A DNA stretch of 64,000 nucleotides from Lophium mytilinum (Eukaryota), in the NCBI GenBank assembly GCA_010093605.1, contig MU004190.1, forward strand, positions 1,434,961-1,498,960, in the 5' to 3' direction. Positions 1 to 64,000 of the stretch are shown here, piece by piece (the first letter of the stretch is position 1; each line of letters starts with the position of its first letter). The position numbers were made by a program, and so were the translations under genes. The notes beneath the pieces were generated by a model. It had not been told where the DNA came from. It saw only the letters and a program-made list of their open reading frames with translations, and searched no databases.

Positions 1-914
1 AATTTGACTTCGAATCTGAAAGTCAATCCGCAGATTTTGCACGTGATAGAACATGAGTCAAACTTCAATAATTTTCCTCTGCTAGAACAGAGATTGCCTT
101 CTCCGTGGAAGCAAACACCAAACCAAGGCAAACCCTTCATTTTCAAAGTACTTTAGAATGCCGTTGGGCTCTGTGGAGATGCGTCGTATTTATATCTGTT
201 GGACAACTCATCTACTTTCTACCCACTCTGGAATCTTTGAGAAAAATGTTCCGATCTTGGATGCATCATTTTTTGACTATCAAAGAGCCGAACGACTAAT
301 CATTACACTAATAACGTCCTACTAGCAACAAGATGAAAAACACCGAGGGTGACGAGTATACACGTACCGTAGCTTCTAGATTGCAGTGTAGCTCTCAAAT
401 TTCCTATTTACGACGGTCTTGATCATTCAATCGCCCAAGAAGTAGTGCCTTGTCGTCCAAAGGTAATGTAATTAACAACCCCATTACAGTCCACCGTTCT
501 AGCAGCGGAGGGACTCGGGAATTGTTCTTTGACCTTTCGTTGTTTCGTATGTTCTAGCGAATGACAAGAGAAAACATCCACGTGTTTTATTCTCAGCCCC
601 ATGAACTTTCTGTATTATGCATGAGTTTGGATGCCATTTCCCTGGTCTCGGAGACAAGACGCGGCTGGAATGGGACAGCCGTTTCCGCCAATTCACGGTA
701 AACTAGCTCTGGGTGGAACTTATACCATTCACCATCGGATCCACTACGACTCTCCTTATAAAGTGCTCCTAAATCAAGGACAGCGCCTCATTCAATATCA
801 TTCCCCAGCCACCGCCCATCCCGATAAACCCACACCTATGGCAACATCGTCCTCGTCACCACTTCCGACTACTTGATTCTATCAACATAGACGACTAAGC
901 TAGTCTCTATAACC

Positions 915-1751
915 ATGGGTACCAACAAGCGTAAACGATCCACGTCGAATCCAGCACCGAAAGGGAAAAACGCTAGACGCGTATCATCGTCAACGCTCTC
1001 TCACGCTGAGCATCCCGACGAGGCGACGGCTCAAGCAGCTGCTGCACCGCTGGCCAAAAAAAAGCGAAACGGGCCCGTTGCTACATCGTGTAGAAGCTGC
1101 ATCAAAGCCAGATGTCGCTGCACCCGCGAATACCCAACCTGCAATCGCTGCACGACCAAACATCTCGACTGCCACTACGACGGCATAACCCCTAGCCACG
1201 CCCCGCAAGCTAGGAGTCTAGATATGCATGCTCAACTGGAGCTGAGAGCAGAACCCCTGGCTCCGGGCCCTAGCCAACGTGGATCAAGGGCGGCAGAGGC
1301 ATCAACCAGCGGAAGTGGCAGCACCGCAAACACTACGAATGGTCAAGCCCCAGCCAGCAATGTAGAAGGGTCCCGGAACCACATAATGCAACAAATGGAG
1401 GTAGCAAATGAAACTGGAGCGACGGAGGCTGCCGATCGAATCCTGGCCAACATTCAGGTCATCGATGATACCACGGCGGACAACGCTACAATACATGAGG
1501 CACCTACCGCTTTGGTCCCCCAAATGCGGCAGCACGTTGCTCTTGAAAATGTTGGTGCTCTCGAGATGGTCTGCGAGCTGCTCTGGCGGCTTCCCCGTAG
1601 TATGATCGTTACTCCGGCTGCCCTAGGCTGGGTCTTCTTTCTGCTAGAGCACAATGGCGTACAAGTGACCGCGGTTGAAAGACAGATCATTGAAAGAGTC
1701 GGTTTCACTATGGGAGGCCTCCTCGACGCGTTCTTCCGCCATGGCTGGTAG
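915..1751 (+). CDS. Zn(II)2Cys6 binuclear-cluster protein, short (278 aa), with an unrecognised C-terminal helical domain
   Basis: Intronless ORF with C-x2-C-x6-C-x6-C-x2-C-x6-C (CRSCIKARCRCTREYPTCNRCTTKHLDC) and basic NLS-like stretches (KRKR, KKKR). No fungal TF middle homology region is visible. Confidence 0.85.
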   Translation: MGTNKRKRSTSNPAPKGKNARRVSSSTLSHAEHPDEATAQAAAAPLAKKKRNGPVATSCRSCIKARCRCTREYPTCNRCTTKHLDCHYDGITPSHAPQARSLDMHAQLELRAEPLAPGPSQRGSRAAEASTSGSGSTANTTNGQAPASNVEGSRNHIMQQMEVANETGATEAADRILANIQVIDDTTADNATIHEAPTALVPQMRQHVALENVGALEMVCELLWRLPRSMIVTPAALGWVFFLLEHNGVQVTAVERQIIERVGFTMGGLLDAFFRHGW

Positions 1752-6593: not shown

Positions 6594-7319
6594 GCGAGAT
6601 ATGGGGCGAAGAGGGTGTATTATCCAGTGAGTAGCCTATTCCAGATTGCTAGGTTGAAAGGTTCTGACTACTAGTAGAGTCCAATCATCACAGGTCTCTC
6701 ACAGGTCAATGTCACGAGGGAGGGGCCATTTGGTCTGGCTTCATGAGGCTTTTGGGGTTTAATGTCTGATCAGAGAGAGCATGCCGGAGGTTGTACAGTT
6801 CTGGGTCTTATATTTTGGCACACGGAAATCTCACTACTTGAGTATTACTCTTGCTCACTTGGAACCACTGTAGGCGGTACCCTAGCTAGCATATCCTAGG
6901 CCTGTTAAACGGTAGCCCTGTTCCAGACTGTATGGACTTTCTGATTCTATAGGAAGTATCAAAACCATGTTAGCACACCCCACGCAGACCCAAGGAGTGC
7001 TCAAGCTTATCTCAGGGTGCTATACCAAACACTCAAGTTCTGTAGTAGATAATGCCTAATCAAGTTAAACTAAAAGTGAAGGTCGATGATGTACTCGTGT
7101 GACCCCGTGATATGACTCAAGAGTGAAAGTCTGAATCGCCTACGAGATATGAGCTAAGGCTGCGGTGTTTGCTATCAGTTGCAGCAGTAGCTCGACATTC
7201 ACCAGTAAGCTCAGACAACGCTTAGCACTGCCATCTGCCAGGTAACGTATCGTTGGAAACCTCGAGGTGAAATCTGTTCAGTTTCCTCATCGCCACCACC
7301 AAACTCGAAACAGGTCGTC

Positions 7320-8507
7320 ATGGCTCCTAATCCATCGCCCTCGGCGTTACTTGGCTCGCCTGCCGAAGCAGGTCTAAAAGGGTGCGCTGCGGTGGCTCTC
7401 CTATCCCCCAAACTGGACACCAAATTCGACGAATCTGCCGCTGAGAAAGTTGGTCGGGTCGTTGAGCTCACGGAGCAAATCCTACAACATCTCCCTTTCG
7501 TCGATCTTCTCTCGGCAAAGCTCATCTGCAAACAATGGCGCGACATCATCAAAGCCTCCTTGCCAGTCCAACAGCAGCTATTCGTAGTCCCGTTTACGTA
7601 CCCGCCGACGCTAAAGCTTCCGGGCTACTTACTCCCAAAGTCTGGCAACTATGGATCTGGCGATCATCAAAAGGACGCTCTCTATATAGTGGAGCCGATT
7701 GGAGGACAGCAGTGGCATCCAATGCTGCAGGAACTGTTCCAGACCCGAGACTGGCAGCAGGACGACGACCCAGCGGCCAGCTTCCGTCCATTCTCATTCC
7801 ACCTCGATGCGTATAACGAATGGGTTCCCGAATGGAAAAACGGCGAGGTCTCGTTTCCAAGATACCCAGAGCTCGTCCGCCTGGTCAAGAAGATTGCGAC
7901 GGCTGCTGATGGCGAGTGGCAACTTGCGCTCTGCAGCCAGCCTCCTACGGCACTTCTGGAATGCACGCGACTTGGTGCCACTAGATATCGTGGTTCGAGA
8001 CAACTAGAAGTGCTCTTCAAAATGGCTGCTGAGGAGGGATCAGATGGCGTCTCCATGGGTCAGATTCAGGCTTGTTTTCGGGATCTAGTGGTTGAAGTGG
8101 ATGTCGTTGCGGCTCAGGCGGGGAAGTTCGAGAGGAGTGTGGCTCGGTTCAAGAGGACTATCGAGAAGGAAGGATATAAGCCGAGTCACTTCTCCAACGG
8201 CTCGAGCTCAACGGAGGCACCCAGTTACATACGCTATCCTTTGGACAACCTTAGGCCGGCTCGACGGGAGATCCGACTACCCCCTAAGCGCTTGCTCGAC
8301 GCGAAAGCCCGGCTCAAAAGGAAGCAAGACGACCTAGTGACTGCTCTTAATCCGGTTGAGTATAAACTCAAATGGTGCAGACATTTGTTCGGTGGCGAGA
8401 ACGTGTCCTGGGACCGTGACTGGGACGACCGTCCTTTGATCCTATTGGATGGAAGGGAGAGTCTCGTACGTTGTGTCGATTATATGCAACTTATGGAAGC
8501 GAACTAA
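7320..8507 (+). CDS. F-box domain protein (395 aa, intronless)
   Basis: N-terminal F-box-like motif VVELTEQILQHLPFVDLLSAKLICKQWRDIIKASLPVQQQLF, typical of lineage-expanded fungal F-box proteins. Confidence 0.75.
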   Translation: MAPNPSPSALLGSPAEAGLKGCAAVALLSPKLDTKFDESAAEKVGRVVELTEQILQHLPFVDLLSAKLICKQWRDIIKASLPVQQQLFVVPFTYPPTLKLPGYLLPKSGNYGSGDHQKDALYIVEPIGGQQWHPMLQELFQTRDWQQDDDPAASFRPFSFHLDAYNEWVPEWKNGEVSFPRYPELVRLVKKIATAADGEWQLALCSQPPTALLECTRLGATRYRGSRQLEVLFKMAAEEGSDGVSMGQIQACFRDLVVEVDVVAAQAGKFERSVARFKRTIEKEGYKPSHFSNGSSSTEAPSYIRYPLDNLRPARREIRLPPKRLLDAKARLKRKQDDLVTALNPVEYKLKWCRHLFGGENVSWDRDWDDRPLILLDGRESLVRCVDYMQLMEAN

Positions 8508-8890
8508 CGTAGGAAACAGATTGACGCAGCTTAAAGATTCAGCCGACCTTGTTACCAAGCATTACGTGGCTTAGTCGTTGTAAGATTGGTGTCTATCTAA
8601 CACGGGAGTGATCCGATGGCTTGTAACACGGGTGGCGGAGGATAGTAGTGAAGGCCAACTTCAATCATGGTCATTGCTTATCAGAAGTTCAGAACTGAGT
8701 GCGCTATACGAGAACAGCACAGGAGATGGTGTCTGCATCCTGAGAGCCATGGGAAAGCAACTCTCGAAACTCAGCGTCACTGAAACAAGCAACTTTATGC
8801 CCAAATGTGTAAGTCATTGAGGGCCGTACTTGCGAGGCCCACACTTTGTCGTACTCGGTACATTATCGTAACTTCAAATACAAGGACATT

Positions 8891-10716
8891 GTCGGCAATG
8901 TTACGCCTGGCTACGGCGATTAGCACCGATGCTAGGTGTAATATTGCCGTTGGAGGAGACTAACTTACCCTCTACGCTGAAAATTATGAATGTGCGCCTT
9001 GTGTTAGACCTTGTCGGCATTCTCACATCTAGCACCGGCGCTTAGTACCACTGCTAGGTGCAATATCACCGCCTCAACTGGAGGACCCGCATAAACCTTG
9101 ATATATGACGATTTGATCCCCGATCTGTTTATTGACCGCAATATAGTACCGCTGAGCGGCGCTGAATGCCGATGTGAGGTGTTGCATCGCCGCTGGAAAC
9201 TGAGGTACTTTGATTGAAATGCTATTTACGGTATTTCCAACTTCTCTCCACTTTCGACGGTAATCTAATATCGCTGAGCGGCGCTGAATGCCGATGTGAG
9301 GTGTTGCATCGCCGCTGGAAATTGAGATGCTTGACTATTTATACTACTTACAGTATCTCTACCTTCTCTCTACCTTCGACAGTGACTAGCACCGCTGCGC
9401 GGCGCTGAGTACCGTTGCTAAGTGTAGCATCGCCGCTAGAGTTTAAGGTACGTTGGCTCTTGATGCTACAGTATTTCTACGTGGTCTCCAACTTGAACGG
9501 CAATCCAACACCTCTGTACGGCGCGAAACACCGATGCTAGGTGTAACATCGCCGCGGAAGTGAGCTGCAATATCATCTAATCTGTGAAATAGTACATGCC
9601 TAACAAATTAGAGGTTGCCGGCAATGCTACACGTAGGAACGGTTTTTAGTACCGATGCTGGGTGTAGCGTTGCTGGTAAGGTAGGGCGACCCGAGCGAGT
9701 TACTATCTACTCTCTCGCTACTAAAATGTGATATTACAAAAATACTATTTCCCGCCGCAAAATCTATACCACCGATGGGTGATTAGTACCGATGGTCAGT
9801 ATAGCATTGTCGGCAACGTAAGCAACCCTGGTAGATTACTCTTGACTCTTTCTCCTGAAAAATTGATATTAGCAAGTATAGCATTTCTCGCCGCCATTCT
9901 CATACCGTAGATCGGTGCTCAGTACCGATACTAGGTGTTGCATTGCCGACAATATAGGGCAAAATGGAAATTACCCTCTAGACTCTCCTATGAAAGGGTA
10001 AATGTATTAAGTATACCACCTCTCGCCGCAAACCTTATACTATTTTACGGTGCTTAGTACCGATGCGAGGTGTTAGATTGCCGACCATATAGATTGAAAT
10101 ATCAATTGCTCTCTAGTCTTTAAAAAAAGAAATACATTAAGTTTACTGCTTCCCGTCGGCGATATCATACTGCAGAACGGTGCGTGTTACCGCTGGTAGG
10201 TGATATATTGCCGACAGTTTAGGGCAAAATGCAAATCACTCTCAAGACTCCTTAAATAGTGAATATAATAAGTGTACTACTTCACGTCGGCGAAGGAACA
10301 CTGTTGAACGGTGCTTAATACCGATGCTAGGTGTAGCATTACCGACAAGACCGGGCAGAGAGGTAAATTACTCTCTAGTCTTCTTAATCAGTAAATATTA
10401 CTTCTAGTCGTTGATAAAATACTGTTGATCGGCGTTTACTACCGATGCTTGATATAGTATCGCCGATAAGATTGGGCAAACTAGCAAATAAGTCTCCAGT
10501 TCATAAAAAATTAGATATATAAAGTGTTCTATTTTCCACCCGCGATCTAACACCGCAGAGCGGCGGAGAACACCGATGCGACGTATAGCATTGCCGCTAG
10601 GTGAGCTGAATCACCGTTCAGCCTCCCAAAATCGTGAATATATGAAGCGTCTTACTTCTCGGCGGCGACCTAACACCACAGAACGGCGCAGAATGCCGAT
10701 GTGGGGCGTAGTCATA
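8891..10716. repeat. Array of 15 imperfect palindromic ~57-bp cores (CGG-N18-CGG-N9-CCG-N18-CCG) with AT-rich linkers, period 119-137 bp
   Basis: Inner CGG positions are 8914, 9036, 9157, 9279, 9400, 9519, 9640, 9777 (GGG variant), 9913, 10048, 10178, 10309, 10430, 10561 and 10684. The right-arm consensus CCGATGCTAGGTGTAGCATTGCCG approximates the reverse complement of the left arms, e.g. CGGCAATGCTACACGTAGGAACGG in unit 7. Confidence 0.95.
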
Positions 10717-11595
10717 TTATTAGGATATAAAACTCAAGGTCTTAGAAAGAAGCATAGTAAATGTATCTACCTCCTTTATATCTACCTCTCCCTGAGGACC
10801 CGATGTACGATTATATGCGTCTCGGGTACTTCTTCGAGGACTACTACAAGGCGCAGGGCGGATTATATCCTTTTGCGACCTCCGCAGTACTCAAGAAGCC
10901 CATATAAGTTATAAGTTCTAGCACAGAGCTAGATTTTCTATCTCCTTGCGCACGACGACCTACGAATATGCGTGATTCAAAGAGACATTATTGAAATAGT
11001 TGGTATTGCTATCAGAGGCATCTCGATAAGCTCTATATGATCACTACCAACATGAACACTGGGGGAGAATTCGCGCAGCCACAGCCTGTTACGTTGGGTA
11101 TCAACGGCACGTTTTGTAAGATTCTCTTATCCTCTATCTCAACATTATGCAATTATCTTGAAACGAAGGCATTATATCTTTTCAGGGAGTGGTAATTCCC
11201 GTTCAACTTCTCATAAAGGAAGACTACTCATGGGTTGCCCGTCTAATCTTATTCTAGCTATTCCTAGCACGGATAACATGCTTTGAGATCCGTAAACTGC
11301 TGCTTTATCCGACTTACTTTTTAGAAGTGAAACCGTCTTATGCATTAGGGGCTTCTAAATTTTCATACCCCTCTCTTTGTTCATCGTTACGAGTTATATA
11401 CAAACAGTATTGATTATTTGACTGACATCCACCCCAGTGGATTACCTTAAAGGCAAAGCACACCACTAGCAAGTCCAATTCACGTCATCAAAGTGGAGTT
11501 TTGAGTCTTACGACTTCCAACCCCAAGCCCCAAACCCTGCTCCCTCTTATTTCCAATCACGTATCACCTTGTTCCACCACCAACGCCACGCAACT

Positions 11596-12318
11596 ATGCC
11601 CCTGACCCTTGACCCAAGAGACAGACAAGCCCTCATAATTGTAGGCGCCGCGATCATAACCACGGCGCTTTTATTAGCATACTCAAGCGTCAAACCTCCA
11701 AGTATTCCTCAACCCACTGCTCCAACAGTCCCAAGGAAGAAGTACAATAGAGCGAAGACGCGCAAGGACAACCGAACTCTACCAGTCCCTCAACATGCCA
11801 GTTCGTCCCAGGCCGTGGGAAGGAGTGTCGCGGTCGCGAACCAGACCAAGCTCAACACAACGGCTCCAGGTACGGGGAAAAAGTTCATGCAGCCATCCCA
11901 CACCCCCCCAGGCTCCCCACCCAACCCCCCATCCCCAACCAAAGAAAGATCTCCAACCCACCTCTCCCAAACCGCCGCAATCCCCACCTCAGCCGAAACA
12001 ACTCCTAGATCTACGCCATCGTCAGGCCCAAGTAGCCCGAGCGACGGCGCCACGATAGCGGCACCTCAAACGACAGTGGTTGAAGCATCGGGGCTCCTCG
12101 CGAGGCAGACTTTTGTATCCACGGGGTCGTATGTGATAGCTCAAGAGCTGATTCGTCGGCTGGCGGAGATTGCAGCGGAGAGGGAGGCTCTGCGGGCGGA
12201 GGAGGGGTATGACGAGGGGTATGAGGGCGAGAAGGAAGGAGGAACAGCGCCTGGTGTTTTGTACGTCTGGAGGCGAGGGTGGCGGAGGGGAGGGGAGGGG
12301 AGTGGCAGAGGTGATTGA
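11596..12318 (+). CDS. Orphan protein with N-terminal transmembrane helix and P/S/T-rich disordered body
   Basis: ATG 11596 (MPLTLDPRDRQ) followed by the hydrophobic stretch ALIIVGAAIITTALLLAY; 240-aa open frame. Confidence 0.5.
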   Translation: MPLTLDPRDRQALIIVGAAIITTALLLAYSSVKPPSIPQPTAPTVPRKKYNRAKTRKDNRTLPVPQHASSSQAVGRSVAVANQTKLNTTAPGTGKKFMQPSHTPPGSPPNPPSPTKERSPTHLSQTAAIPTSAETTPRSTPSSGPSSPSDGATIAAPQTTVVEASGLLARQTFVSTGSYVIAQELIRRLAEIAAEREALRAEEGYDEGYEGEKEGGTAPGVLYVWRRGWRRGGEGSGRGD

Positions 12319-13128
12319 GTGGGTTGCGGTTGGGATGGCTGTGGGTTTTGATTACTTTTGGTTTGGTCGGTGATGAGAACGCAAAATGAGCATTTTTGTT
12401 TTAGTTCAAAGTGAATATACCTACTCGTTAGCAGTCGGCGGCGCTTATTGAATGATAGTTCTCCTTTCTCGCGGAGCTACAGTGTCCTCCATGGATATCC
12501 GTACACTTCCCTGTCACTATTTATAGGGGTTCCACGTACAGTTAGAAATTGTGGGTAGTGCACACGCTTCCAATTCGCGTACATCATGCTGTCACTGTCT
12601 GGAGTACCCTCGTGAGTTTGCTAGTAGTCTAAAATGCCGCATTTCTGTCTTATTCCGAACGCTGAAAATACTACGATCCTCCTCAAGCAGCGATAAACAA
12701 CTGTACGGATTCCTGTGACGAATCATTGTGGTTCTAGGTTAGCATTCGGCGGTGATTACCGAAGCATACTGCTCTCTACTCACGGGGTTAGGGGTATCAG
12801 CGGCAGTACCCTCGCTCGATGTGGACTGTGAATAGTATAGGTGATCTTGCGAAAGAGAAAGGACACCCAGACTAGTCGTGAGCGGCATTAAGGAAATAGA
12901 CGGCAATGAAGATGCTCGGAAGGCGTATATGTTACCCCTGACCAGCAGCTTCTCCTTGGAAGTACCCCTCAATATTTAAGGTCTTCACTGCCCGACAGAT
13001 ACTCACTACACCTAAACCTCATCTACTAGGCAACTATGCCTTGTAGACTATCAGCAAGCTCTCCATATACTTACTCCTCTTACCTTCCACCTACCTCAGC
13101 AATCCAATCCATACCAAACTTCTCAAAG

Positions 13129-23559: not shown

Positions 23560-23840
23560 TAAGGTGCTATGGCTTACTGAGATTTTCCGGCAGAGATGTA
23601 GAAATCTGGACAGTAAGACTTGGGCAGGTGCTCAATTGCTGCTTTCGACCCTGTTATACCGCCGTCTGAGGCGTTCTGGCATACTGAGAATTCCCTGTAG
23701 AGATGTAAAGATTGGCACAGTAAGAATTGGACCGGTGCTTAATTGATCTTGTTGGCTCTATTATACCACCGTCTGAAGTACTTCAGTAGGCAGGAAGGAT
23801 TATAGGTAAGATGTAATATTTGAGGGTGTCAATAAGATTC
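23560..23840. repeat. Degenerate ~107-bp tandem repeat (~2.5 copies), non-coding
   Basis: tactgagattttccggcagagatgta...cagtaagacttgg...ggtgctcaattg...ttataccgccgtctga at 23575 versus tactgagaattccctgtagagatgta...cagtaagaattgg...ggtgcttaattg...ttataccaccgtctga at 23682. Confidence 0.75.
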
Positions 23841-25084: not shown

Positions 25085-28000
25085 ATGGCGGACATCACAG
25101 AGCAGCTACCCGTGGCTGCAGACACCAACGAAGCTACCCCTACGAATGCTGCAGAAGCTTCAACACCCTCCACGAAGCCCGATGCTGCTACGGCTGCAAA
25201 GAGGAAGACGACTGCCTCTAGTACAGCTTCGAAGCCAGACCTGGCTGCTCCCCGGCGGCCCCTTGCGTCCTCGGCAGCTGGGTCTGCAGCAAAACGCCCG
25301 ACGACCACATCCTCTCGACTATCCACAACGACCTCCAAGCCTCTGGCCACCCCTTCGGCACGTCAATCGACTCTGGGATCTAGTCTGAGCAAGCCCCCCA
25401 CGCGCCCAGTTTCAGGCTCGACAGTCCGGCGACCAGGTACCACCTCATCCTCGAAGACAGCGGGCTCAGATCACGATCATGACCTTGCCTCTCTCACCTC
25501 TGGGGATGAGAACAAGAAGCCGGGCCTCAATGGCACGCGGCGGACGTCAACACTGTCGTCGGCGACCACCAGGGCCTCACCTTCCAAGGCAGGTTCCGCC
25601 GCGGAGAGACGATCGACAATCGCACCGCCCAGCACGAGCGCACCCCGGCGCCCAGCAATATCGTCACGAACAAGTACAACAGATACAGGGACAGCTCGCC
25701 CGCCTCCGCGAATGTCGCTGGCGGCTGGGACTAGGCCGACAACGACGCGTCCCAGTACTACCGCCAAGGCGCCCACCACAACTCCACGAGTCGCTCCAGG
25801 TCACGCGAAAAAGCCTTCAACATCCTCCACTGCTTCGTCCACCATGGCTGCTAGCACACCCAGCCAGGCCAAAGGGTAGGCGATAACTTCTTCACTGTAC
25901 CCAAGCATTGCTAACTCAAGTGAATAGGAAATCTACCGCCTTGAGTGGACCTCCCATGGCCGACCTCTCGAAAGACAAGTCCGTGTCCGATGCCGAAGTC
26001 GAATTGCGATCTACACCCTTCTCTCCGTCTGAGGTTGAAGCTGTCGCTGAAGAGGCAACCAGACCAGACACTGCTCCCAGCGACTCTGTGACCGACGCCG
26101 ATCTCGAGGAAAGGAAGAAGAGGAGTGCAGAGATAATGCAGAACTTCCTGAAGGAGACCACCATGCGGGAAACTATGCAAGAAGAGAGCGACAAGCTCAA
26201 GAAAGATCTCGAGAAGCTTACAAAGGAAACCATAAAGCTCAAGAAGCAAGTGCTCGAGAAAGACAGCGTGATTGCAGAGAAAGAGAAGCTGTTGGCAGAC
26301 ACACAAGTACAGGGGCAGCCGAAGGCCTCACCTCTGCAGTCGTCCCTCATTGATCAAATGGAGAACAAGTTTGCGTTTGAGACCCGGGAGCTTCGTGACC
26401 AGAAGGAGAAGCTCGAGGGCGAACTTGCTACGGCCAAGGCCAAGAAGCAAGAGGTCAGTGAGACTGCAAAGCACGAAGCAGAGCACTCAACTGAACTTCA
26501 ACAGGTATTGGATCAGCTCGATGCTGAACTCGCGACTAAGGAAAAAGAGTGGGCGAATGAGAGGAAATCCTGGAGACAAAAACACGGAGACCAGCAAGCC
26601 TCAATCGATGGGCTGAAAAAAGAGAAGGCTGAGCTAGCGAGCGGTTTCGACGCACACAAGGCGACGTATGAGGCTTTGAAACTGCAACATTCCGAGGCTG
26701 AAGCGGCCGTGGAAGATCTCCAGATCAAACTTTCCACACTGAGCAAAGACCATACCGACGAGCTCAACACTCTCAAAGGAGACCACGAGACCGCTCAACA
26801 AGCGCTTTCCGATCTGCAGGACCAACTCGCTAAACTTCAGAAGAAACACACCGACGAGATCAGAGAACGGGATGAGGATATCGAGAAATTCAAAGAAATC
26901 AGGGAGGCCTTGGAAGGGAAACTTGCTGCACAAGCCCTGCAACACAAAGAGGCCCTCGAGGAAACTGAACGGTCCTTCAACGAGAAGCATACCGAGTCGC
27001 GATCCCTCGTCGACGATCTACAGTCCCAGATCACCTCTCTCCAACAAAGCCATAGTGACGAGTTGAACGAACACAAACAGACGGCGGAAACACGTACAAA
27101 ACAATTGCAAGAAGAGCTAGAGGCTCTACAAAGTCAATCCAGCGAGACAATCAAAAGCTTGGAGAAATCCCACCAAGAGCAGACGACGAAGCTGCAAGAA
27201 GAACTCCGTACCCGGGGCGAAGAGCATGAGAATGTCCTGCATGCCAAAGACGAGGAAGTGTCGAAACACGTCAATACCCTGGACAGGCTGCAGGACCAGA
27301 TCAAGTCCCTCCAACAAGGCGAAACCGATGGTAGCAAGATTGTGGAAGACCTCCAGCAACAGAACGGGGACCTCCAGGAGCAGATTGCGGACCTCAAGCG
27401 CTCCCACGCGGATGCGCTGAAGGCCAAAACGGATGAGGCCGAAGAGCTCTCGAAACAACTCGATTACGTGAACGACCAGCTCGCCTCTGACGCCGCGGAC
27501 CTTGAACGCCTAAAGGACGAGAACGAAAGCCTCAAGAAGTCCATCGAAACTTTCGAAAAGTTCTCCCAGCAGCAGGACGCCGAATCCTCTACGGTTCGAG
27601 CTGAGCTTGAGGAAGCGAAACAGAAGGTTGAGAAACTTAAGTCTGAGCTTGATGCCGCCCAAGACCGACACAATCAGGACCTTCAAGCCATTGGAAAAGA
27701 CCATGACGAAGAGATTGAATCAATACGGGCTGACCTGGAAGGAGATGCTAAGAAACAGTTTGACGCACTCCAAGCCAAACATGACTCGCTGTTGGAGGAA
27801 AAGACCGTCGCGGAGGCCAAGCATGACGCTGTTGAGAAGGAGAAAGAGAAGCTGCTCAGCGAACATAAACAAGACCTCGAAGCTTCAAAAGCTAAATCGG
27901 AGACTCTGGAAAAGGAGCTGATTGACGTCAAGACTGAAAAAGAGACTGTGTACGCAGAAAAGAAGGTTGCCGAGGAAGCGCATGCCACTTCTCAGGAAGC

Positions 28001-30257
28001 GATTATCAGCCTCCAGACGCAACTCGATATTCTACTCGAAGAAAAGAAAGCTGCCGAGGAAGCGCATACTTTGGCGATCGAGGCACTTAAGGCCGACACC
28101 GACGCTTCCTCTAGAAAAGCTCTTGAGGATCTTCAGACGAAACATGATGCTCTACTTGAGGAAAAGAAAGCCACCGAAGAAGCACACGGTTTGGCGATTG
28201 AGGCGCTCAAAGCTGATACCGAAGCTTCCTCCAGACAGCTTATTGATGATCTGCAGGCGAAACACGACACCTTGTTGACGGAGAAGACCGCTGCCGAAGA
28301 AGCACACGGTTTGGCAATCGAGGCCTTGAAGGCCGACACCGATTCTTCGTCTCAAAAGTTAATCGACGACCTCCAGGCCAAGCACGACGCTCTTCTAGAA
28401 GAAAAGATGACGATTGAAGCGAAGCATAAAGCCGAATTGAAAGACTTGGAGAAAGAGATGGACGATAACGCAAGCACGTTTATCAATGACATGCAGAAGA
28501 AGTTTGTGACACTTACCGAAGAGAAGGACAAAGCCGCGGAACAACATCTACTGGAATTGTCGTCTTTGCAAACAGAATTGGATTCAGCTCACAAGATTTC
28601 TATCGCCGATCTACAAGGCAAACACGATGCCCTCGTTGCTGAGAACACGGAGCTCGAACAATCTCATGCCGACTCTATTGCTCATCTTACCGATTCGTTG
28701 AAGGCTGACCATACCGAAGCACTAGCTAGTCTTCAATCCAAGCACGACGAACTGACCGAGAAGCTCTCTGGCACCGAAAAGGCCCACGCGGATGCGATTG
28801 CCCTGCTTAGAGAAGAACTCAAGGATGGTCACTCCAATGACCTCGCTGCTGTGCAGGCCAAGCTCGGCGAAATCCAAGCTCAATATGAGCAGCTTTCAGA
28901 GGAAAAGGCTGCGGCTGAGAAGGCTCATGAAGAGGCGGTTGTCGAGCTAACGAAGGGAATGGAGAGCAGTTCGTCGGAAGCTTTAAAGGAGGTGGAAGCG
29001 AAATATGAGCAGGCTCTTGCACGAGAGAAAGAGTTAGAGCTCAAGCATGCTGAGGAGGTGGAGAGTCTAAAGTCTAGTCTCGAGGAAACTTACATTCAAC
29101 GCCTACAGGAGAAAGAAGAGAAACTGAAGGCCTTGGAGGAGGGCCTGACAGCCAAAGACGACGTTCTTGGCAAGCACGAGGAGAGCTTAAGCAAACTGTC
29201 CAAGGCCCTTAAATCAACCCGACAAGAACTCGCAACAGCTGAACAACGCTTGAAGAATGCTGGGGAGTCGAATGCCGCCTCACTCCTAGATGCGCAGTCC
29301 AATCATGCGAAGGAACTTGAAGATGTCGTCAATCAGCACCGCCAAGAGATAGCACAGGCCCTCCAAGAGCACGAACGGAAATATGATAGCGAGCGCGCCA
29401 ACAAGGCCGCATATTCTGCTCGGGTGGCTCATCTGTTGGGGATTATTGAGGATGGCATTGTACCAGGAGATGACGGTAGCGAAAAATCTCCACCGGTGGG
29501 GGGGAAGTTCGAAGACTTCGCAGCAGAGGCCGATGAAGATCCAGAAGAGGCTATTAAGCAGCTGGCTCAAAAACTTCAGAGCTTCTTCAAGCATCACGAG
29601 GAAACCATGAAGGCAGATGAGGACCTTCAGATACAACATGTTGATGTTGTGAAAGAGCGAGATGGGTTGGTGCGCGAGATGGAGCGGATGAAGGGCGATG
29701 TAGTGCGCAAGCACCTCGCAATGATCGAACCGCTAGAAAAAGAGAATGAGCGCCTCAAGGAGAAGAACACGAGGCTCGAGAATATACTCTCTGCGGGAGA
29801 TCGCGTCGCTCGCGCTGCCGCCACTCTCGGCGAGCCCAGGACTATCGAGACGGTCGCCGAGGCTGATGAGGAGAGCGACGAAGGGGAGCAGGCCGGTCAG
29901 GGTGCTGATGCGGATTCGGTGTGGTCGGGTGCCGATGCTGGGACTGAAGCTGGTGGACTTGAGACAGGTGAGTCCGCTCACGCTGGCGAGTTTAGTGTTG
30001 GTGGAGAGGAGGAGAGGCGGCCTAGAGAAGCCCTCGGCACTGTCAGCAACCCTCCTCGTCTCCGATCGGGCAAGCCTGCTAACTCGCCCCGGCAGATGGC
30101 CAAAATGCAAGAAGCCCTACGACAGCTTAACGAGCTCAATGACGACGCTCTCGCCGAGAGTTCGCGGGCGGCGGCGGCGTTGTCGAGGCGGGCGGGCGCG
30201 CGGATCCAGCAGAGGGATGCGGACAGGGATGCGGACAGCAGCAATGAGGAGTTGTAA
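25085..30257 (+). CDS. Large (~1700 aa) coiled-coil protein with basic S/T/P/R-rich N-terminal region and internal 40-aa repeats
   Basis: ATG 25085 (MADITEQ). Intron 25876-25927 leads into the 1449-aa E/K/L/H-rich ORF. A further in-frame intron is likely near 30042-30095. Confidence 0.85.
28033..28870 (+). repeat. 120-bp (40-aa) coding tandem repeats, three near-identical and at least four diverged
   Basis: LLEEKKAAEEAHTLAIEALKADTDASSRKALEDLQTKHDA / LLEEKKATEEAHGLAIEALKADTEASSRQLIDDLQAKHDT / LLTEKTAAEEAHGLAIEALKADTDSSSQKLIDDLQAKHDA and further diverged copies. Confidence 0.9.
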
Positions 30258-61699: not shown

Positions 61700-64000
61700 A
61701 GTAAAGCAGTGTAATATTTCTAATTACGTAATATAAGAATTTTAAAAATAATAGATATTAATTCTATATAGAAATCTAGCTAGGCTATATATATTAGAGA
61801 GGCCTATATAGGCCTTAATTATACTAGATCTATATAGAAAAGTATTTCTATAGTAGATCTATATATTATATATATAATATCTAAATATTAACTATATATT
61901 AAGAATTCTATATTTTCTTCTTCTAGATTTAATTTACTATTAAATTATATTTATAATAGTATATTATGCTTACTACTTTACGCTATATATTATTAGTATA
62001 TTAGGCTATTAGCTTCTTTAGAAGCTTTAAAGCTTCTAGAGGTATATAATACTATAAAAAGTATATTAGTAGGTAGTAATATTATAGTAATATTACCTAA
62101 GAGGGGTTTAGAATTCTTTAGAGGTCTACTACTATATTAGTAGGGGATAATAAAGGTATTAGAATATTTAATAGCTTAATAGTAAGAAAGAATTAGAAGA
62201 GATTATAAAGTATTTATAATAGAGGGAATTATAAAGTAATATAAATATTAGCATGCTAGCGTATATTAGGTTCTAATATATAATTAAAGCTATAATAGCT
62301 AATAATAGGCTTATTAGAAATCTTATAAAGTTTCTTATAATCTAGTAAGAAGCTTATAATATTATATAGATTTAAGAAGCTATTAGTATATTATAGAGTA
62401 GTAAGTAGTAATTTAAAAGTAATAAATTTAAGAATCTAGAGTATATATAAGGCCTTCTTAATACTCTTATACTTTTTCTTCTATACTTAACTTTCTTCTT
62501 TAAGGTTTAAGCTTCTCTTATCTTTAAAGATTTATTAAAGACTTTTATAGCTTCTCTTTTTATTACTATTATCTTTCTTTATTAATTCTTTTATTAGAAC
62601 TCTCTCTCTCTTAGCTTCTAGGCTATTTCTTCTTACTCTAAGTTAGTATTATAATATTACTTAATACCTAGCTAGGTTCTATAGCCTCTAGCTTACTCTA
62701 TTTAGAAAGAGGTAGAGATAGAGGTAATAATTCTTTAAACTCTAGCTATAGTTATAAGGTTCTATACTCTTATAAATTCTTAGGTATTTTAGCTTATAAA
62801 GCCTTATAGGCCTATAGTAAGTTTTTAATAATAGTTTAGCTTTTTCTCTTAATAAAGCTAATAAGATCTAGTTACTATTATACTTATATTAATTATTAAC
62901 CTTCTAATAGTCTAGAGGTTCTATAATCTATACTATATATAGCTAATAGCCTTTAATAACCCTATTCTACTTTCTTAAGCCTTCTAATACTATACTATAG
63001 CTTCTAATTATCTAAACTATACTAAATACCCCCTAAAGTTTAAAGATAGTAGTAGAGCTTAAAGAAATATACTACTTTAAGAGTTTCTTAGTAATATTAG
63101 AGATAATAAACTAATTTTAAATAAAAACTATAGCTATACTTTACGCTTTATAGGGCTTCTTAAATAGTATTTAGGCTTAAGAGTAGATTATAGTAAGAAT
63201 TTTAGAGCTTTTTCTACCTTTAGGGCCTATAACTACTACTTAAGAATATTCTTAGAAGGCTATTAGTTTAGTAAATATATTTAGGCTTATAATCTAGATA
63301 GTTCTTCTCTCTACTAAGGATTCTATATAGAATATTATTAGCAGAGTAGTAAGAAAACTTATTTATTCTAAGGTAAGTTTAGCTTTACTTTTAGAGTATT
63401 TTAGAACTTAGCTAATATCTATTATAGAAGAGTAGACTCTAATAGCTTATTAGAAGACTACTAGGGCTTATATTTAATAAGGTTACTATAATATTACTAA
63501 GTTTATATCTTCTCTTTATAACTAAGAATCTTTTAAGAACCTAACTAAAAATATAGTATACTTAGCCTTAGCTATATAGCTACTAATAGAATTAATTTAA
63601 AGAAAGACTACTATACTACTATATAATCTAGATATTTCTTATACTTCTATTTCTTTAATAGCTTAATATTACCTATAGGGCTCTAGTAGTACCTCTACTT
63701 AGGCTTTTAGTTTAAGATCTAGCTTTTAGTAATTATCTATAGCTATATTAGGTTTAGAAAATATAGCTACTTTAGATTCTAGTACTTAAGGTCTAAAGTA
63801 ATACTCTCTAACCTTTTCTACTTAGCCTTTAACTTCTCTAACTTCTTTAACCTCTTATTATTCTTCTTTAGGTTCTCTATAGTGCTTTTAAGAGTCTACT
63901 TCTAATATACTATTAAGCCGCCGCTTATCCTAGTTATCTATTAGTAATAATAATAACTCTACTAGAGAGACCCCTCTAAACTCTACTTAGTATTAGATAG
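61700..64000. mobile_element. RIP-degraded repetitive/transposon relic (family not assignable)
   Basis: Abrupt switch to very AT-rich sequence with heavy TpA excess and almost no CpA/TpG. No ORF of 60 aa or more. Continues past the window end. Confidence 0.85.

Follow-up and report, generated by a model that had tools for sequence, protein, structure and literature searches.

The window, the 64-kb stretch of Lophium mytilinum DNA analysed here, holds at positions 8893-10719 a tandem array of 15 units, the single locus of this kind within the 64 kb. The array lies in the intergenic gap between an F-box gene upstream and a gene for a small putative membrane protein downstream. The features referred to below are the following, the units being numbered u1 to u15.

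891..1751, + strand: candidate Zn2Cys6-like open frame, 7 kb upstream of the array, with CX2CX6CX6CX2CX6C at 1089-1172
7320..8507, + strand: F-box protein gene, upstream of the array; stop 386 bp before u1; Pfam F-box at E 1.7e-07
8893..10719, no strand assigned: whole array; 15 head-to-tail units, 119-137 bp long and composed of a 57-nt core and a 62-80-nt linker; non-coding
8893..8949, + strand: core u1, the best palindrome; four triplets exact; 19 of 24 WC pairs plus 3 G:T; DNA hairpin of -18.0 kcal/mol, z -5.97
9015..9071, + strand: core u2; inner CCG changed to CCA; 15 of 24 WC pairs; its linker cannot be aligned with the others
9136..9192, + strand: core u3, member of the block u3-u5; outer-left triplet is CCG
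9258..9314, + strand: core u4; 50-nt block identical with u3 (inner left arm, loop and right arm)
9379..9435, + strand: core u5; outer left arm gone, ACA in place of CGG; 6 of 24 WC pairs
9498..9554, + strand: core u6; four triplets exact
9619..9675, + strand: core u7, the second good palindrome, which opens the long-linker block u7-u13; 18 of 24 WC pairs; hairpin of -17.4 kcal/mol, z -7.0
9756..9812, + strand: core u8; inner CGG changed to GGG, outer-right triplet changed to TCG
9892..9948, + strand: core u9
10027..10083, + strand: core u10
10157..10213, + strand: core u11; four triplets exact
10288..10344, + strand: core u12; four triplets exact; right arm nearest the consensus, with 1 mismatch
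10409..10465, + strand: core u13
10540..10596, + strand: core u14
10663..10719, + strand: core u15, at the end of the array; its right arm is eroded beyond about 15 nt, which marks the array edge, and the profile match ends at 10715
11596..12318, + strand: downstream gene; 240 aa, looks by its sequence like a single-pass membrane protein whose tail is rich in Pro and Ser; ATG about 880 bp after u15

The spacings between inner CGG triplets given in the preliminary description of this DNA (122, 121, 122, 121, 119, 121, 137, 136, 135, 130, 131, 121, 131 and 123 bp) proved exact. An nhmmer profile of the core recovered all 15 units on the + strand (E <= 4e-12), and nothing in the 64 kb outside the array scored better than E 0.9. 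Cores are richer in GC than linkers (0.536 vs 0.379). A coding role for the array was rejected, each of the six frames containing 26-44 stops; the longest open stretch wholly within it is 86 aa. With its head-to-tail order, a unit of tens to about a hundred bases, one locus and non-coding content, the array is a minisatellite. Rfam gave no match at E <= 1 over 8000-12000 and none at gathering score in the whole window, and ARAGORN found nothing.

The F-box protein is 100% identical to the NCBI hypothetical protein BU16DRAFT_540108 of L. mytilinum. The 240-aa downstream protein matched no Pfam family and has a 54%-identical orthologue in Mytilinidion resinicola. The F-box protein has an orthologue in that species too; the two orthologues lie on contigs of one length (446,750 bp), which makes a single contig probable. 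Contigs of run X3, whose label as RNA is a guess, lay on 11466-11894 and 11976-12207, in the region of the downstream gene; within 7000-12500, pieces from this run were found only on 11466-12500, with none over the array or the F-box gene, a distribution from which we draw no conclusion.

Decay of the palindromes

The units had been described as 57-bp palindromes of fixed CGG-N18-CGG-N9-CCG-N18-CCG geometry. The array stood up to closer inspection; the palindromes did not, being mostly relics that keep 6-19 of 24 WC pairs per unit, and the exact four-triplet pattern is present in 5 of the 15 units. From outer left to outer right, the triplets are exact in 8/15, 14/15, 14/15 and 12/15 units. 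The CGG-N9-CCG centre does keep one register in all 15 units, with both triplets exact only in 13 (CCA in u2, GGG in u8). In some units the arms reach 4 nt further, as TTGT...ACAA. As for the 1-nt indels earlier reported in the left arms of units 5 and 8-10, MAFFT placed none, though on visual inspection a one-base shift does seem present in u8-u10.

The arms are complementary in 66.9% of cells, compared with 29-49% in slid registers, and the cores therefore qualify as imperfect palindromes. We did not observe covariation between the arms within units, since partners shuffled among units paired in 65.9 +/- 1.0% of cells and 94 of 500 shuffles were as high as the real alignment. Arm pairing no better than that of shuffled partners runs counter to the proposed selection on a dyad-symmetric element, and a 57-nt RNA or DNA hairpin is likewise without support. 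Strong hairpin folding is confined to u1 and u7 (z -6 and -7); the remaining 13 units have z between -2.1 and 0. The mismatches comprise 38 G:T and 24 A:C, which as a strand marker is not decisive. Two smaller hairpins were dropped: an ATGCTA..TAGCAT mini-hairpin inside the right arm, which showed no covariation, and a second hairpin seen by eye in the linkers of u3, u4 and u9 (in folds of the 15 linkers on either strand, z ranged from -2.2 to +2.8 and no stem was shared).

Conservation of cores and linkers

The right arm sits in one 24-nt register, and its majority consensus is the CCGATGCTAGGTGTAGCATTGCCG of the preliminary description; with up to 3 mismatches, this consensus matched 8 times, all within the array (0 expected from 100 shuffles). 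Mean pairwise identity fell from 0.72 in the right arm to 0.58 in the loop, 0.57 in the left arm and 0.44 in the linker, whose alignment contains 18% gap columns. The right arm was more similar than the linker in 103 of the 105 unit pairs, in agreement with the claim that linkers decay faster than cores. Estimated relative rates were 0.46 (right arm), 0.61 (loop), 0.84 (left arm) and 1.22 (linker), and equal rates were rejected in a partitioned likelihood model (LRT 44.5, 3 df, p 1e-9) whose tree takes no account of gene conversion or unequal exchange among repeats. The total tree length was 5.4 substitutions per site.

The left arm is nearly as fast as the linker, as indicated by distances of 0.37 and 0.36 in those 18 unit pairs whose linkers are alike. 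From these 18 near pairs to 63 far pairs, the right-arm distance rose from 0.24 to 0.30 while that of the linker rose from 0.36 to 0.64; core distances that level off while linkers saturate fit a core in which some positions are fixed and others free. In the young block u7-u13, conservation of the core barely exceeds that of the linker, and for u9-u11 the identities were 0.75 (right arm), 0.71 (left arm) and 0.77-0.78 (linker).

Conserved blocks had been placed about one helical turn apart, and the best period was indeed 11.0 bp. Among 2000 column permutations, 8 attained its power at any period and 1 did so within 10-11.5 bp, a significance that is overstated because the test permutes single columns. 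Mutation bias alone does not fit, since the RIP-prone G43, part of a TpG, has a conservation of at least 90% whereas several A/T columns are variable. Given the slow right arm, the fast left arm and the lack of covariation, the kept element is the asymmetric right half of the core, about 36 nt long, and not the dyad.

Growth of the array

Two blocks of units, u3-u5 and u7-u13, still have linkers in common. TRF reported a 122-bp period over 9148-9437, around the first of them. In that block, u3 and u4 differ at none of the 33 nt of loop and right arm, against 15 mismatches and 3 gaps in the linker (Fisher p 0.0005), and the 50-nt Logan piece at 9272-9321, which corresponds to their common block, has about twice the depth of the flanks. 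In u12, a linker of u7-u13 type has been reduced to 64 nt, so that the spacing is again 121 bp. The u9-u11 linkers are 65-77% identical, or 87-93% when purines and pyrimidines are collapsed, their differences being mostly transitions. In these comparisons a gap-permissive pairwise alignment lifted even unrelated linkers to 0.62-0.80, and only the u3-u4 and u9-u11 rows were kept. Elsewhere, in u1-u6, u14 and u15, the linkers measure 62-66 nt, though most can no longer be aligned with one another; the standard deviation of linker length is 1.3 in these units vs 5.4 in u7-u13, a difference that is not significant (Levene p 0.06).

The array carries a mild RIP signature (TpA/ApT 1.16 and (CpA+TpG)/(ApC+GpT) 0.93, with 0.76 and 1.2 for the window), and RIP was clearly active nearby, at 62-64 kb (1.88 and 0.03). 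Distances in the core correlated with those in the linker at r 0.21, which 617 of 5000 permutations equalled; for loop plus right arm against the linker genealogy, r was 0.27 (232 of 5000).

Candidate reader and related sites

The regular expression CX2CX6CX6CX2CX6C, run over six frames of the whole window, gave one match, which lies in the frame at 891-1751; Pfam Zn_clus scored this frame at E 0.0061 and 17.1 bits, under the 21-bit cut-off. Zn2Cys6 genes are common in ascomycetes, so the position of the frame near the array means little, and we regard its predicted product as a weak candidate for the protein that would read the array, with a presumed tie between the two. The CGG-N9-CCG pattern occurs 9 times in the window outside the array, where rough arithmetic predicts about 15 by chance; not exceeding chance, it gives no signal of a wider regulon. 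In metagenomes, a degenerate 19-nt right-arm pattern was found at 38 loci, with one match each and no second copy within 1.5 kb, and none of the 26 matches whose flank was examined was preceded by CGG-N9. The 38 loci were taken as chance matches.

Discussion

Our tentative preference is for an old, RIP-marked minisatellite in which half of the core has been kept as a putative protein docking site. For the reader, our best guess would be a protein of the Zn2Cys6 type, since the grammar of that family is one of inverted CGG triplets with a fixed gap. The ancestral unit would have been about 121 bp long and would have borne a palindrome of about 57-65 bp. Local tandem duplication would have enlarged the array, and many substitutions may have followed, transition-rich and RIP-like in the young block u9-u11, with constraint staying on the right half-core of about 36 nt (CGG-N9-CCGATG..GGTGT..AT.GCCG). 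Since its conserved blocks recur every 11 bp or so, they would lie on one face of the helix. Each unit would then offer a docking site to a sequence-specific DNA-binding protein, perhaps a Zn2Cys6-type dimer, and the 15 sites could jointly serve a neighbouring gene as one regulatory or architectural element with many sites. We infer selection as the cause, and likewise protein binding, the family of the reader and the target gene. With a symmetric dimer one would look for constraint on both half-sites, whereas the left arm is loose. Each inner triplet is intact in 14 of 15 units, and the arms that flank these triplets differ in rate (0.84 vs 0.46).

A bolder version of the docking-site reading, which we consider doubtful, would see in the array a selected "ruler" lattice. 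At least 15 putative sites, each a 36-nt asymmetric CGG-N9-CCG-N18-CCG with contacts about 11 bp apart, would be set about 121 bp from one another (130-137 in one block) by spacers of free sequence and read by a dedicated protein, as a cellular counterpart of viral hr-type enhancer or origin arrays. Such a lattice, if real, could provide neighbouring genes with a super-enhancer, a boundary or a sink for factors.

Uneven decay could also arise in a functionless relic minisatellite, an explanation that we judge somewhat unlikely. Its palindromic, GC-richer cores would be hot spots of break and repair or of gene conversion, possibly GC-biased, and would be kept homogenised, with the AT-rich linkers mutating freely through RIP-type or other changes. 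Conversion would give just such a weak correlation between core and linker distances as the r of 0.21, but it should act alike on both arms, and the rate of the right arm is about half that of the left one. Moreover, the variants of loop and right arm still follow the linker genealogy (r 0.27), meaning that homogenisation has not erased descent. Free mutation of the linkers is consistent with the mild RIP signature of the array beside clear RIP activity at 62-64 kb and with the transitions that prevail among the u9-u11 linkers, yet the linkers of u1-u6, u14 and u15 hold their length despite their mostly unalignable sequences. That the palindromes have already decayed in 13 of 15 units, and that cores within u7-u13 have fared no better than linkers, argues for a relic; the 11-bp phasing of kept columns, which has no obvious mutational cause, argues against one. 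If the array is a decaying satellite, it would exemplify uneven decay in palindromic repeats and caution against taking symmetry as function.

Quite unlikely, in our estimate, is a piece or derivative of a mobile element, be it internal or subterminal repeats of a DNA transposon or foldback element or a MITE-derived satellite, in which the core would be a former transposase or recombinase site and other copies would exist elsewhere in the genome. The ancestral unit would fit, as a long palindrome whose TTGT...ACAA extension has the shape of short foldback or MITE elements, and two past periods of transposon expansion are reported in L. mytilinum (PMC12910237). However, neither core nor unit has a second copy in the 64 kb, no terminal inverted repeats of note flank the array, and the 47 frames scanned (of 63 of at least 150 aa) contain no transposase, integrase or reverse-transcriptase domain. 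The dispersal expected of a transposable-element repeat, which the preliminary description had weighed against its own reading, is thus not seen within the window, which holds no second copy and no transposon protein domain. Logan DNA depth over the array equals that of the flanks, except for the roughly twofold u3/u4 block, and argues, weakly since depth is given per contig, against near-identical copies elsewhere. Very unlikely, finally, are small RNA stem-loops on the + strand, formed in a non-coding transcript or in the UTR of a neighbour by a 36-nt fold of the conserved half rather than by the 57-nt palindrome. RNAalifold picks this fold at -4.9 kcal/mol, pairing columns 26-30 with 57-61 and 35-38 with 48-51 around a 9-nt loop, so that the stems are weak, 5 and 4 bp. 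Of 500 column-shuffled alignments, 1 had a consensus energy as low, and the fold shows 12 further pair types (reached by 1 of 500 shuffles) with double changes at three pairs; but this support is marginal and post hoc, and the fold was chosen on the same 15 sequences that served for testing. Although 94.1% of 135 cells pair, many through G:U valid on the + strand only, this is barely above shuffles (92.3 +/- 1.0; 36 of 500 as high), and the minus strand beats its shuffles too, as any palindrome relic would. Also against RNA stem-loops, Rfam has no match at E <= 1, the linkers show no consistent fold on either strand, neither the 57-nt hairpin nor the right-arm mini-hairpin covaries, and an 11-bp conservation period is a feature of a DNA face, not of RNA.

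If the half-core is truly a docking site, the locus would be a natural phased array of 15 sites, in which simple deletions, made in a filamentous fungus, could probe the reader, the number of sites and their spacing. It would further follow that intergenic tandem repeats of fungi can long outlast the erasure, by RIP and drift, of the remainder of the unit.

Comparison with known systems

The preliminary description recognised no described fungal element, and the literature on L. mytilinum, tandem palindromes of Dothideomycetes, CGG-N9-CCG and palindromic fungal minisatellites likewise gave no such description. Its analogies with integron attC sites and partition-site arrays fail on content, the linkers being 62-80 nt long, non-coding and homologous between neighbours. 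With CRISPR and attC arrays the locus shares the layout only, in that more variable stretches of similar length separate the semi-palindromic repeats. Its host, in contrast, is a eukaryote; the core parts are only about 57-72% identical, unlike CRISPR repeats; and, unlike in integrons, the linkers carry no cassette gene and no integrase domain appears in the 47 frames scanned. Since neighbouring linkers are homologous (0.65-0.77 in u9-u11), they are not acquired spacers.

The array resembles ordinary minisatellites as a non-coding tandem array at a single locus, with local duplication (u3-u5, u7-u13) and variable unit length. It departs from them in its position-specific constraint with an 11-bp phase and in the eight units that hold 62-66-nt linkers in spite of mostly unalignable sequence.

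The hrs of the baculovirus SpltNPV-II, which serve as enhancers and replication origins, are described as consisting of 64-bp units, three to eight in number, that each contain an imperfect palindrome of 24 bp (PMC4535591). Both systems are direct repeats that each hold an imperfect palindrome. Baculovirus hrs, however, are viral, number several per genome and have highly conserved units, whereas the array lies in a fungal chromosome, is single within 64 kb and consists of strongly diverged units that are about twice as long, with 13 of the 15 palindromes degraded.

Enhancer repeats at CYP51A of Penicillium digitatum are reportedly recent and near-identical. The units of the array are, in contrast, old (tree length 5.4) and kept only in part. 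Five copies of a 126-bp enhancer are reported in front of CYP51A (PMC11122302), and the array is like them in its unit of about 120-130 bp, its head-to-tail order and its position upstream of a gene.

Zinc-cluster proteins are reported to recognise CGG triplets arranged as inverted, direct or everted repeats, with spacing setting the specificity, and the outer CGG and CCG of the array, 21 bp away (N18), would fit the direct and inverted repeats of this Gal4 family (PMC10954478). The array is further like Zn2Cys6 sites in its inverted CGG triplets at a fixed gap, an exact N9 in 13 of 15 units, and in being intergenic and upstream of a gene; our literature search found no factor with an inverted CGG-N9-CCG site. 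Unlike in such sites, the conserved sequence runs far past the triplets (CCGATG, GGTGT, AT.GCCG) and lies to one side. Known promoters contain a handful of irregularly placed zinc-cluster sites, whereas the array presents 15 putative sites that are evenly spaced.

Layout and uniqueness of the array

The array consists of 15 head-to-tail units (u1-u15) at window positions 8893-10719. In each unit a 57-nt core, comprising a left and a right arm of 24 nt each around a 9-nt centre or loop, precedes a linker; from u1 to u15 the linker lengths are 65, 64, 65, 64, 62, 64, 80, 79, 78, 73, 74, 64, 74, 66 and 66 nt. The unit spacings listed in the preliminary description, anchored on the inner CGG (122, 121, 122, 121, 119, 121, 137, 136, 135, 130, 131, 121, 131 and 123 bp), proved exact. 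The u12 linker (10345-10408) is of the long type of u7-u13, minus 9-16 nt, and through this loss the spacing is back at exactly 121 bp, the short-class value; this return could be a coincidence or a hint that spacing is important.

The right-arm consensus (up to 3 mismatches) gave eight matches in the window, all within the array, and none in 100 shuffles. An nhmmer profile of the core recovered 15/15 units on the + strand of the 64-kb window, at E-values between 2e-18 and 4e-12, together with weaker reverse-strand self-matches of the units, and no match better than E 0.9 in the 64 kb outside the array. CGG-N9-CCG occurs at nine other sites in the window, without enrichment, and metagenome matches to the array motif were all single and taken as chance. 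A lone look-alike of the core centre (CGG + 9 nt + CCG, 14/18 bases as in the consensus by our count) lies at 12746-12763, about 430 bp past the membrane-protein gene listed below; its profile E of 0.92 is at chance level. A separate 107-bp tandem duplication at 23570-23776 (1.9 copies, 79% matches) is unrelated to the array, since core and unit profiles give no match there better than E 8.7.

The array stretch was found without difference in two DNA runs, possibly the source of the assembly, and the depth of the sequencing pieces over it was that of the flanks. The sole piece at about twice the flank depth was a 50-nt block common to u3 and u4, which fits, as weak evidence, two genomic copies of this block.

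Coding potential and neighbouring genes

The array is non-coding, with 26-44 stops per frame and a longest open stretch wholly within it of 86 aa; Rfam gave no match to it at E <= 1, and ARAGORN found no tRNA. Its neighbours are as follows.

7320-8507, + strand: F-box protein gene (domain search of the frame)
11596-12318, + strand: 240-aa frame, single-pass membrane-like with a Pro/Ser-rich tail (reading of the translation)

The F-box gene, whose stop lies 386 bp before the array, encodes a protein 100% identical to an NCBI protein assigned to Lophium mytilinum and 58% identical to its nearest relative, from Mytilinidion resinicola. The 240-aa frame, without a Pfam family, starts about 880 bp beyond the array and shares 54% identity with an orthologue in M. 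resinicola. For both neighbours M. resinicola provided the sole detected relatives, so that the gene pair is lineage-restricted; each relative lies on a 446,750-bp contig, and this equal size makes synteny probable. Elsewhere, the frame 25887-30257 (+; 1456 aa, without a Pfam family), in a region strongly skewed to A over T, contains a 120-bp-period repeat at 28014-28407 (3.3 copies, 74% matches); its product may be a protein of repetitive or coiled-coil type.

Symmetry of the arms

The units had been described as palindromes of fixed CGG-N18-CGG-N9-CCG-N18-CCG geometry, and selection on a dyad-symmetric element had been suggested. The full geometry is exact in only five of 15 units, while the inner pair is kept in 13; the four triplets are retained, in order, in 8, 14, 14 and 12 units. 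The arms do pair well above slid registers (66.9% of arm cells over all units, compared with 29-49%), but the symmetry is weaker than claimed, with 6-19 of 24 Watson-Crick pairs per unit. When the 3' partners were shuffled among units, pairing was 65.9±1.0%, and 94 of 500 shuffles reached the real value. Selection on dyad symmetry is thus not upheld; the symmetry is a legacy of the ancestral unit, and individual units do not maintain it. With DNA parameters, only u1 (-18.0 kcal/mol, z about -6) and u7 (-17.4 kcal/mol, z about -7) form the full hairpin, the remaining 13 units having z between -2.1 and 0.

Core and linker rates

The core does evolve more slowly than the linker, as had been proposed, but unevenly so. 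In an edge-proportional partition model (tree of 5.4 substitutions per site), relative rates were 0.46 for the right arm, 0.61 for the loop, 0.84 for the left arm and 1.22 for the linker, and an equal-rate model was worse (LRT 44.5, 3 df, p 1e-9). Mean pairwise identities were 0.72, 0.58, 0.57 and 0.44, respectively (linker gaps 18%), and in 103 of the 105 unit pairs identity was higher in the right arm than in the linker. Between u3 and u4, the 33 loop and right-arm bases show no difference and the linker 15 mismatches and 3 gaps (Fisher p 0.0005). Core distances plateau: between the 18 unit pairs whose linkers are similar and the 63 whose linkers are dissimilar, linker distance goes from 0.36 to 0.64, and the increase is only from 0.24 to 0.30 in the right arm and from 0.37 to 0.44 in the left arm. 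The young block u7-u13 counts against a simple picture, its core being barely better kept than its linker; indeed, identities within u9-u11 are 0.75 (right arm), 0.71 (left arm) and 0.77-0.78 (linker).

This rate pattern suits a motif of fixed and free positions. Near-invariant columns of the core alignment are C26 G27 G28, G30, A34, C38 C39 G40, T42 G43, G48 T49, T56 and G61, with C5 and A17 on the left side. The information content of the columns is most strongly periodic at 11.0 bp, with a power attained in 8 of 2000 permutations when any period counts and in 1 of 2000 within 10-11.5 bp; this test is optimistic since single columns were permuted.

Growth and mutation history

The tree groups u3-u5 and places u7-u13 in one clade, and TRF detects only the u3-u5 block within the array, which indicates growth by local duplication. 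Linkers of u9-u11 are 65-77% identical, and 87-93% in a purine/pyrimidine-collapsed alphabet, so that recent change was mostly by transitions. Between blocks, linkers are near random similarity even when collapsed (about 0.5-0.6); eight units nevertheless retain linkers of 62-66 nt, and the smaller spread of lengths among them falls short of significance (Levene p 0.06).

The array carries a mild RIP-like signature (TpA/ApT 1.16 and (CpA+TpG)/(ApC+GpT) 0.93, window 0.76 and 1.2), and the 62 right-arm departures from consensus comprise 29 GC-to-AT transitions, 11 AT-to-GC transitions and 22 transversions. RIP alone is insufficient for the pattern of kept columns, since G43, in a RIP-prone TpG, is kept at 90% or more and A41, T45, A46 and A52 vary. 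The AT-rich stretch 62001-64000 (GC 0.253), with several short AT-rich tandem repeats, is heavily RIP-like (1.88 and 0.03 for the same indices) and probably marks the border of a repeat region degraded by RIP.

Proposed origin of the constraint

According to the best-supported reading, the array is an old single-locus minisatellite, and about 36 nt per unit, the right half of the core (half-core), would be under constraint in phase with the helix, as CGG-N9-CCGATG..GGTGT..AT.GCCG. A DNA-binding protein touching one face of the helix would explain this most economically, and we favour such docking tentatively, at rather less than even confidence. Inverted CGG triplets with a fixed gap are described as the grammar of zinc-cluster factors (PMC10954478); in our literature search, no paper described an inverted CGG site with an N9 gap. 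The sole local candidate reader is the frame 891-1751 (+), 7 kb from the array, whose translation may be that of a divergent zinc-cluster factor: it scores below threshold with Pfam Zn_clus (E 0.0061, 17.1 against a 21-bit cut-off). This frame also holds, at 1089-1172, the only CX2CX6CX6CX2CX6C motif in the six frames of the window.

Homogenisation without selection, to which the weak core-linker contrast of the young block would be congenial, is somewhat unlikely. A mobile-element origin with other copies is doubtful: domains of a transposase, an integrase or a reverse transcriptase are absent from all 47 frames scanned (of 63 of 150 aa or more in the window). Descent from a mobile element would be compatible with protein binding today. 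An array of RNA stem-loops on the + strand is improbable and retained as a minority rival. Covariation is absent from the 57-nt RNA hairpin put forward earlier and from an ATGCTA..TAGCAT hairpin within the right arm, and no common fold was found in the linkers. RNAalifold prefers a half-core fold on the + strand (columns 26-30 with 57-61, 35-38 with 48-51) in which 94.1% of cells pair (shuffles 92.3±1.0, the real value being reached in 36 of 500), double changes occur at three pairs, 12 further pair types are matched by 1 of 500 shuffles, and the energy is better than that of column-shuffled alignments. However, the minus strand likewise beats its own column-shuffled alignments, the stems are just 5 and 4 bp, and the fold was chosen on the data used for testing it.

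Comparison with known systems

A CRISPR-like reading fails, as does the attC-like architecture suggested earlier, because adjacent linkers share homology and none is long enough for a gene. A layout similar to that of the array is found in baculovirus hrs, direct repeats each with an imperfect palindrome, which are described as enhancers and origins (PMC4535591), and in enhancers made of tandem repeats, for example a 126-bp unit reported to precede CYP51A of P. digitatum in five copies (PMC11122302). The array belongs to neither group, being cellular and the only one of its kind in the 64 kb, with old units that have diverged strongly.
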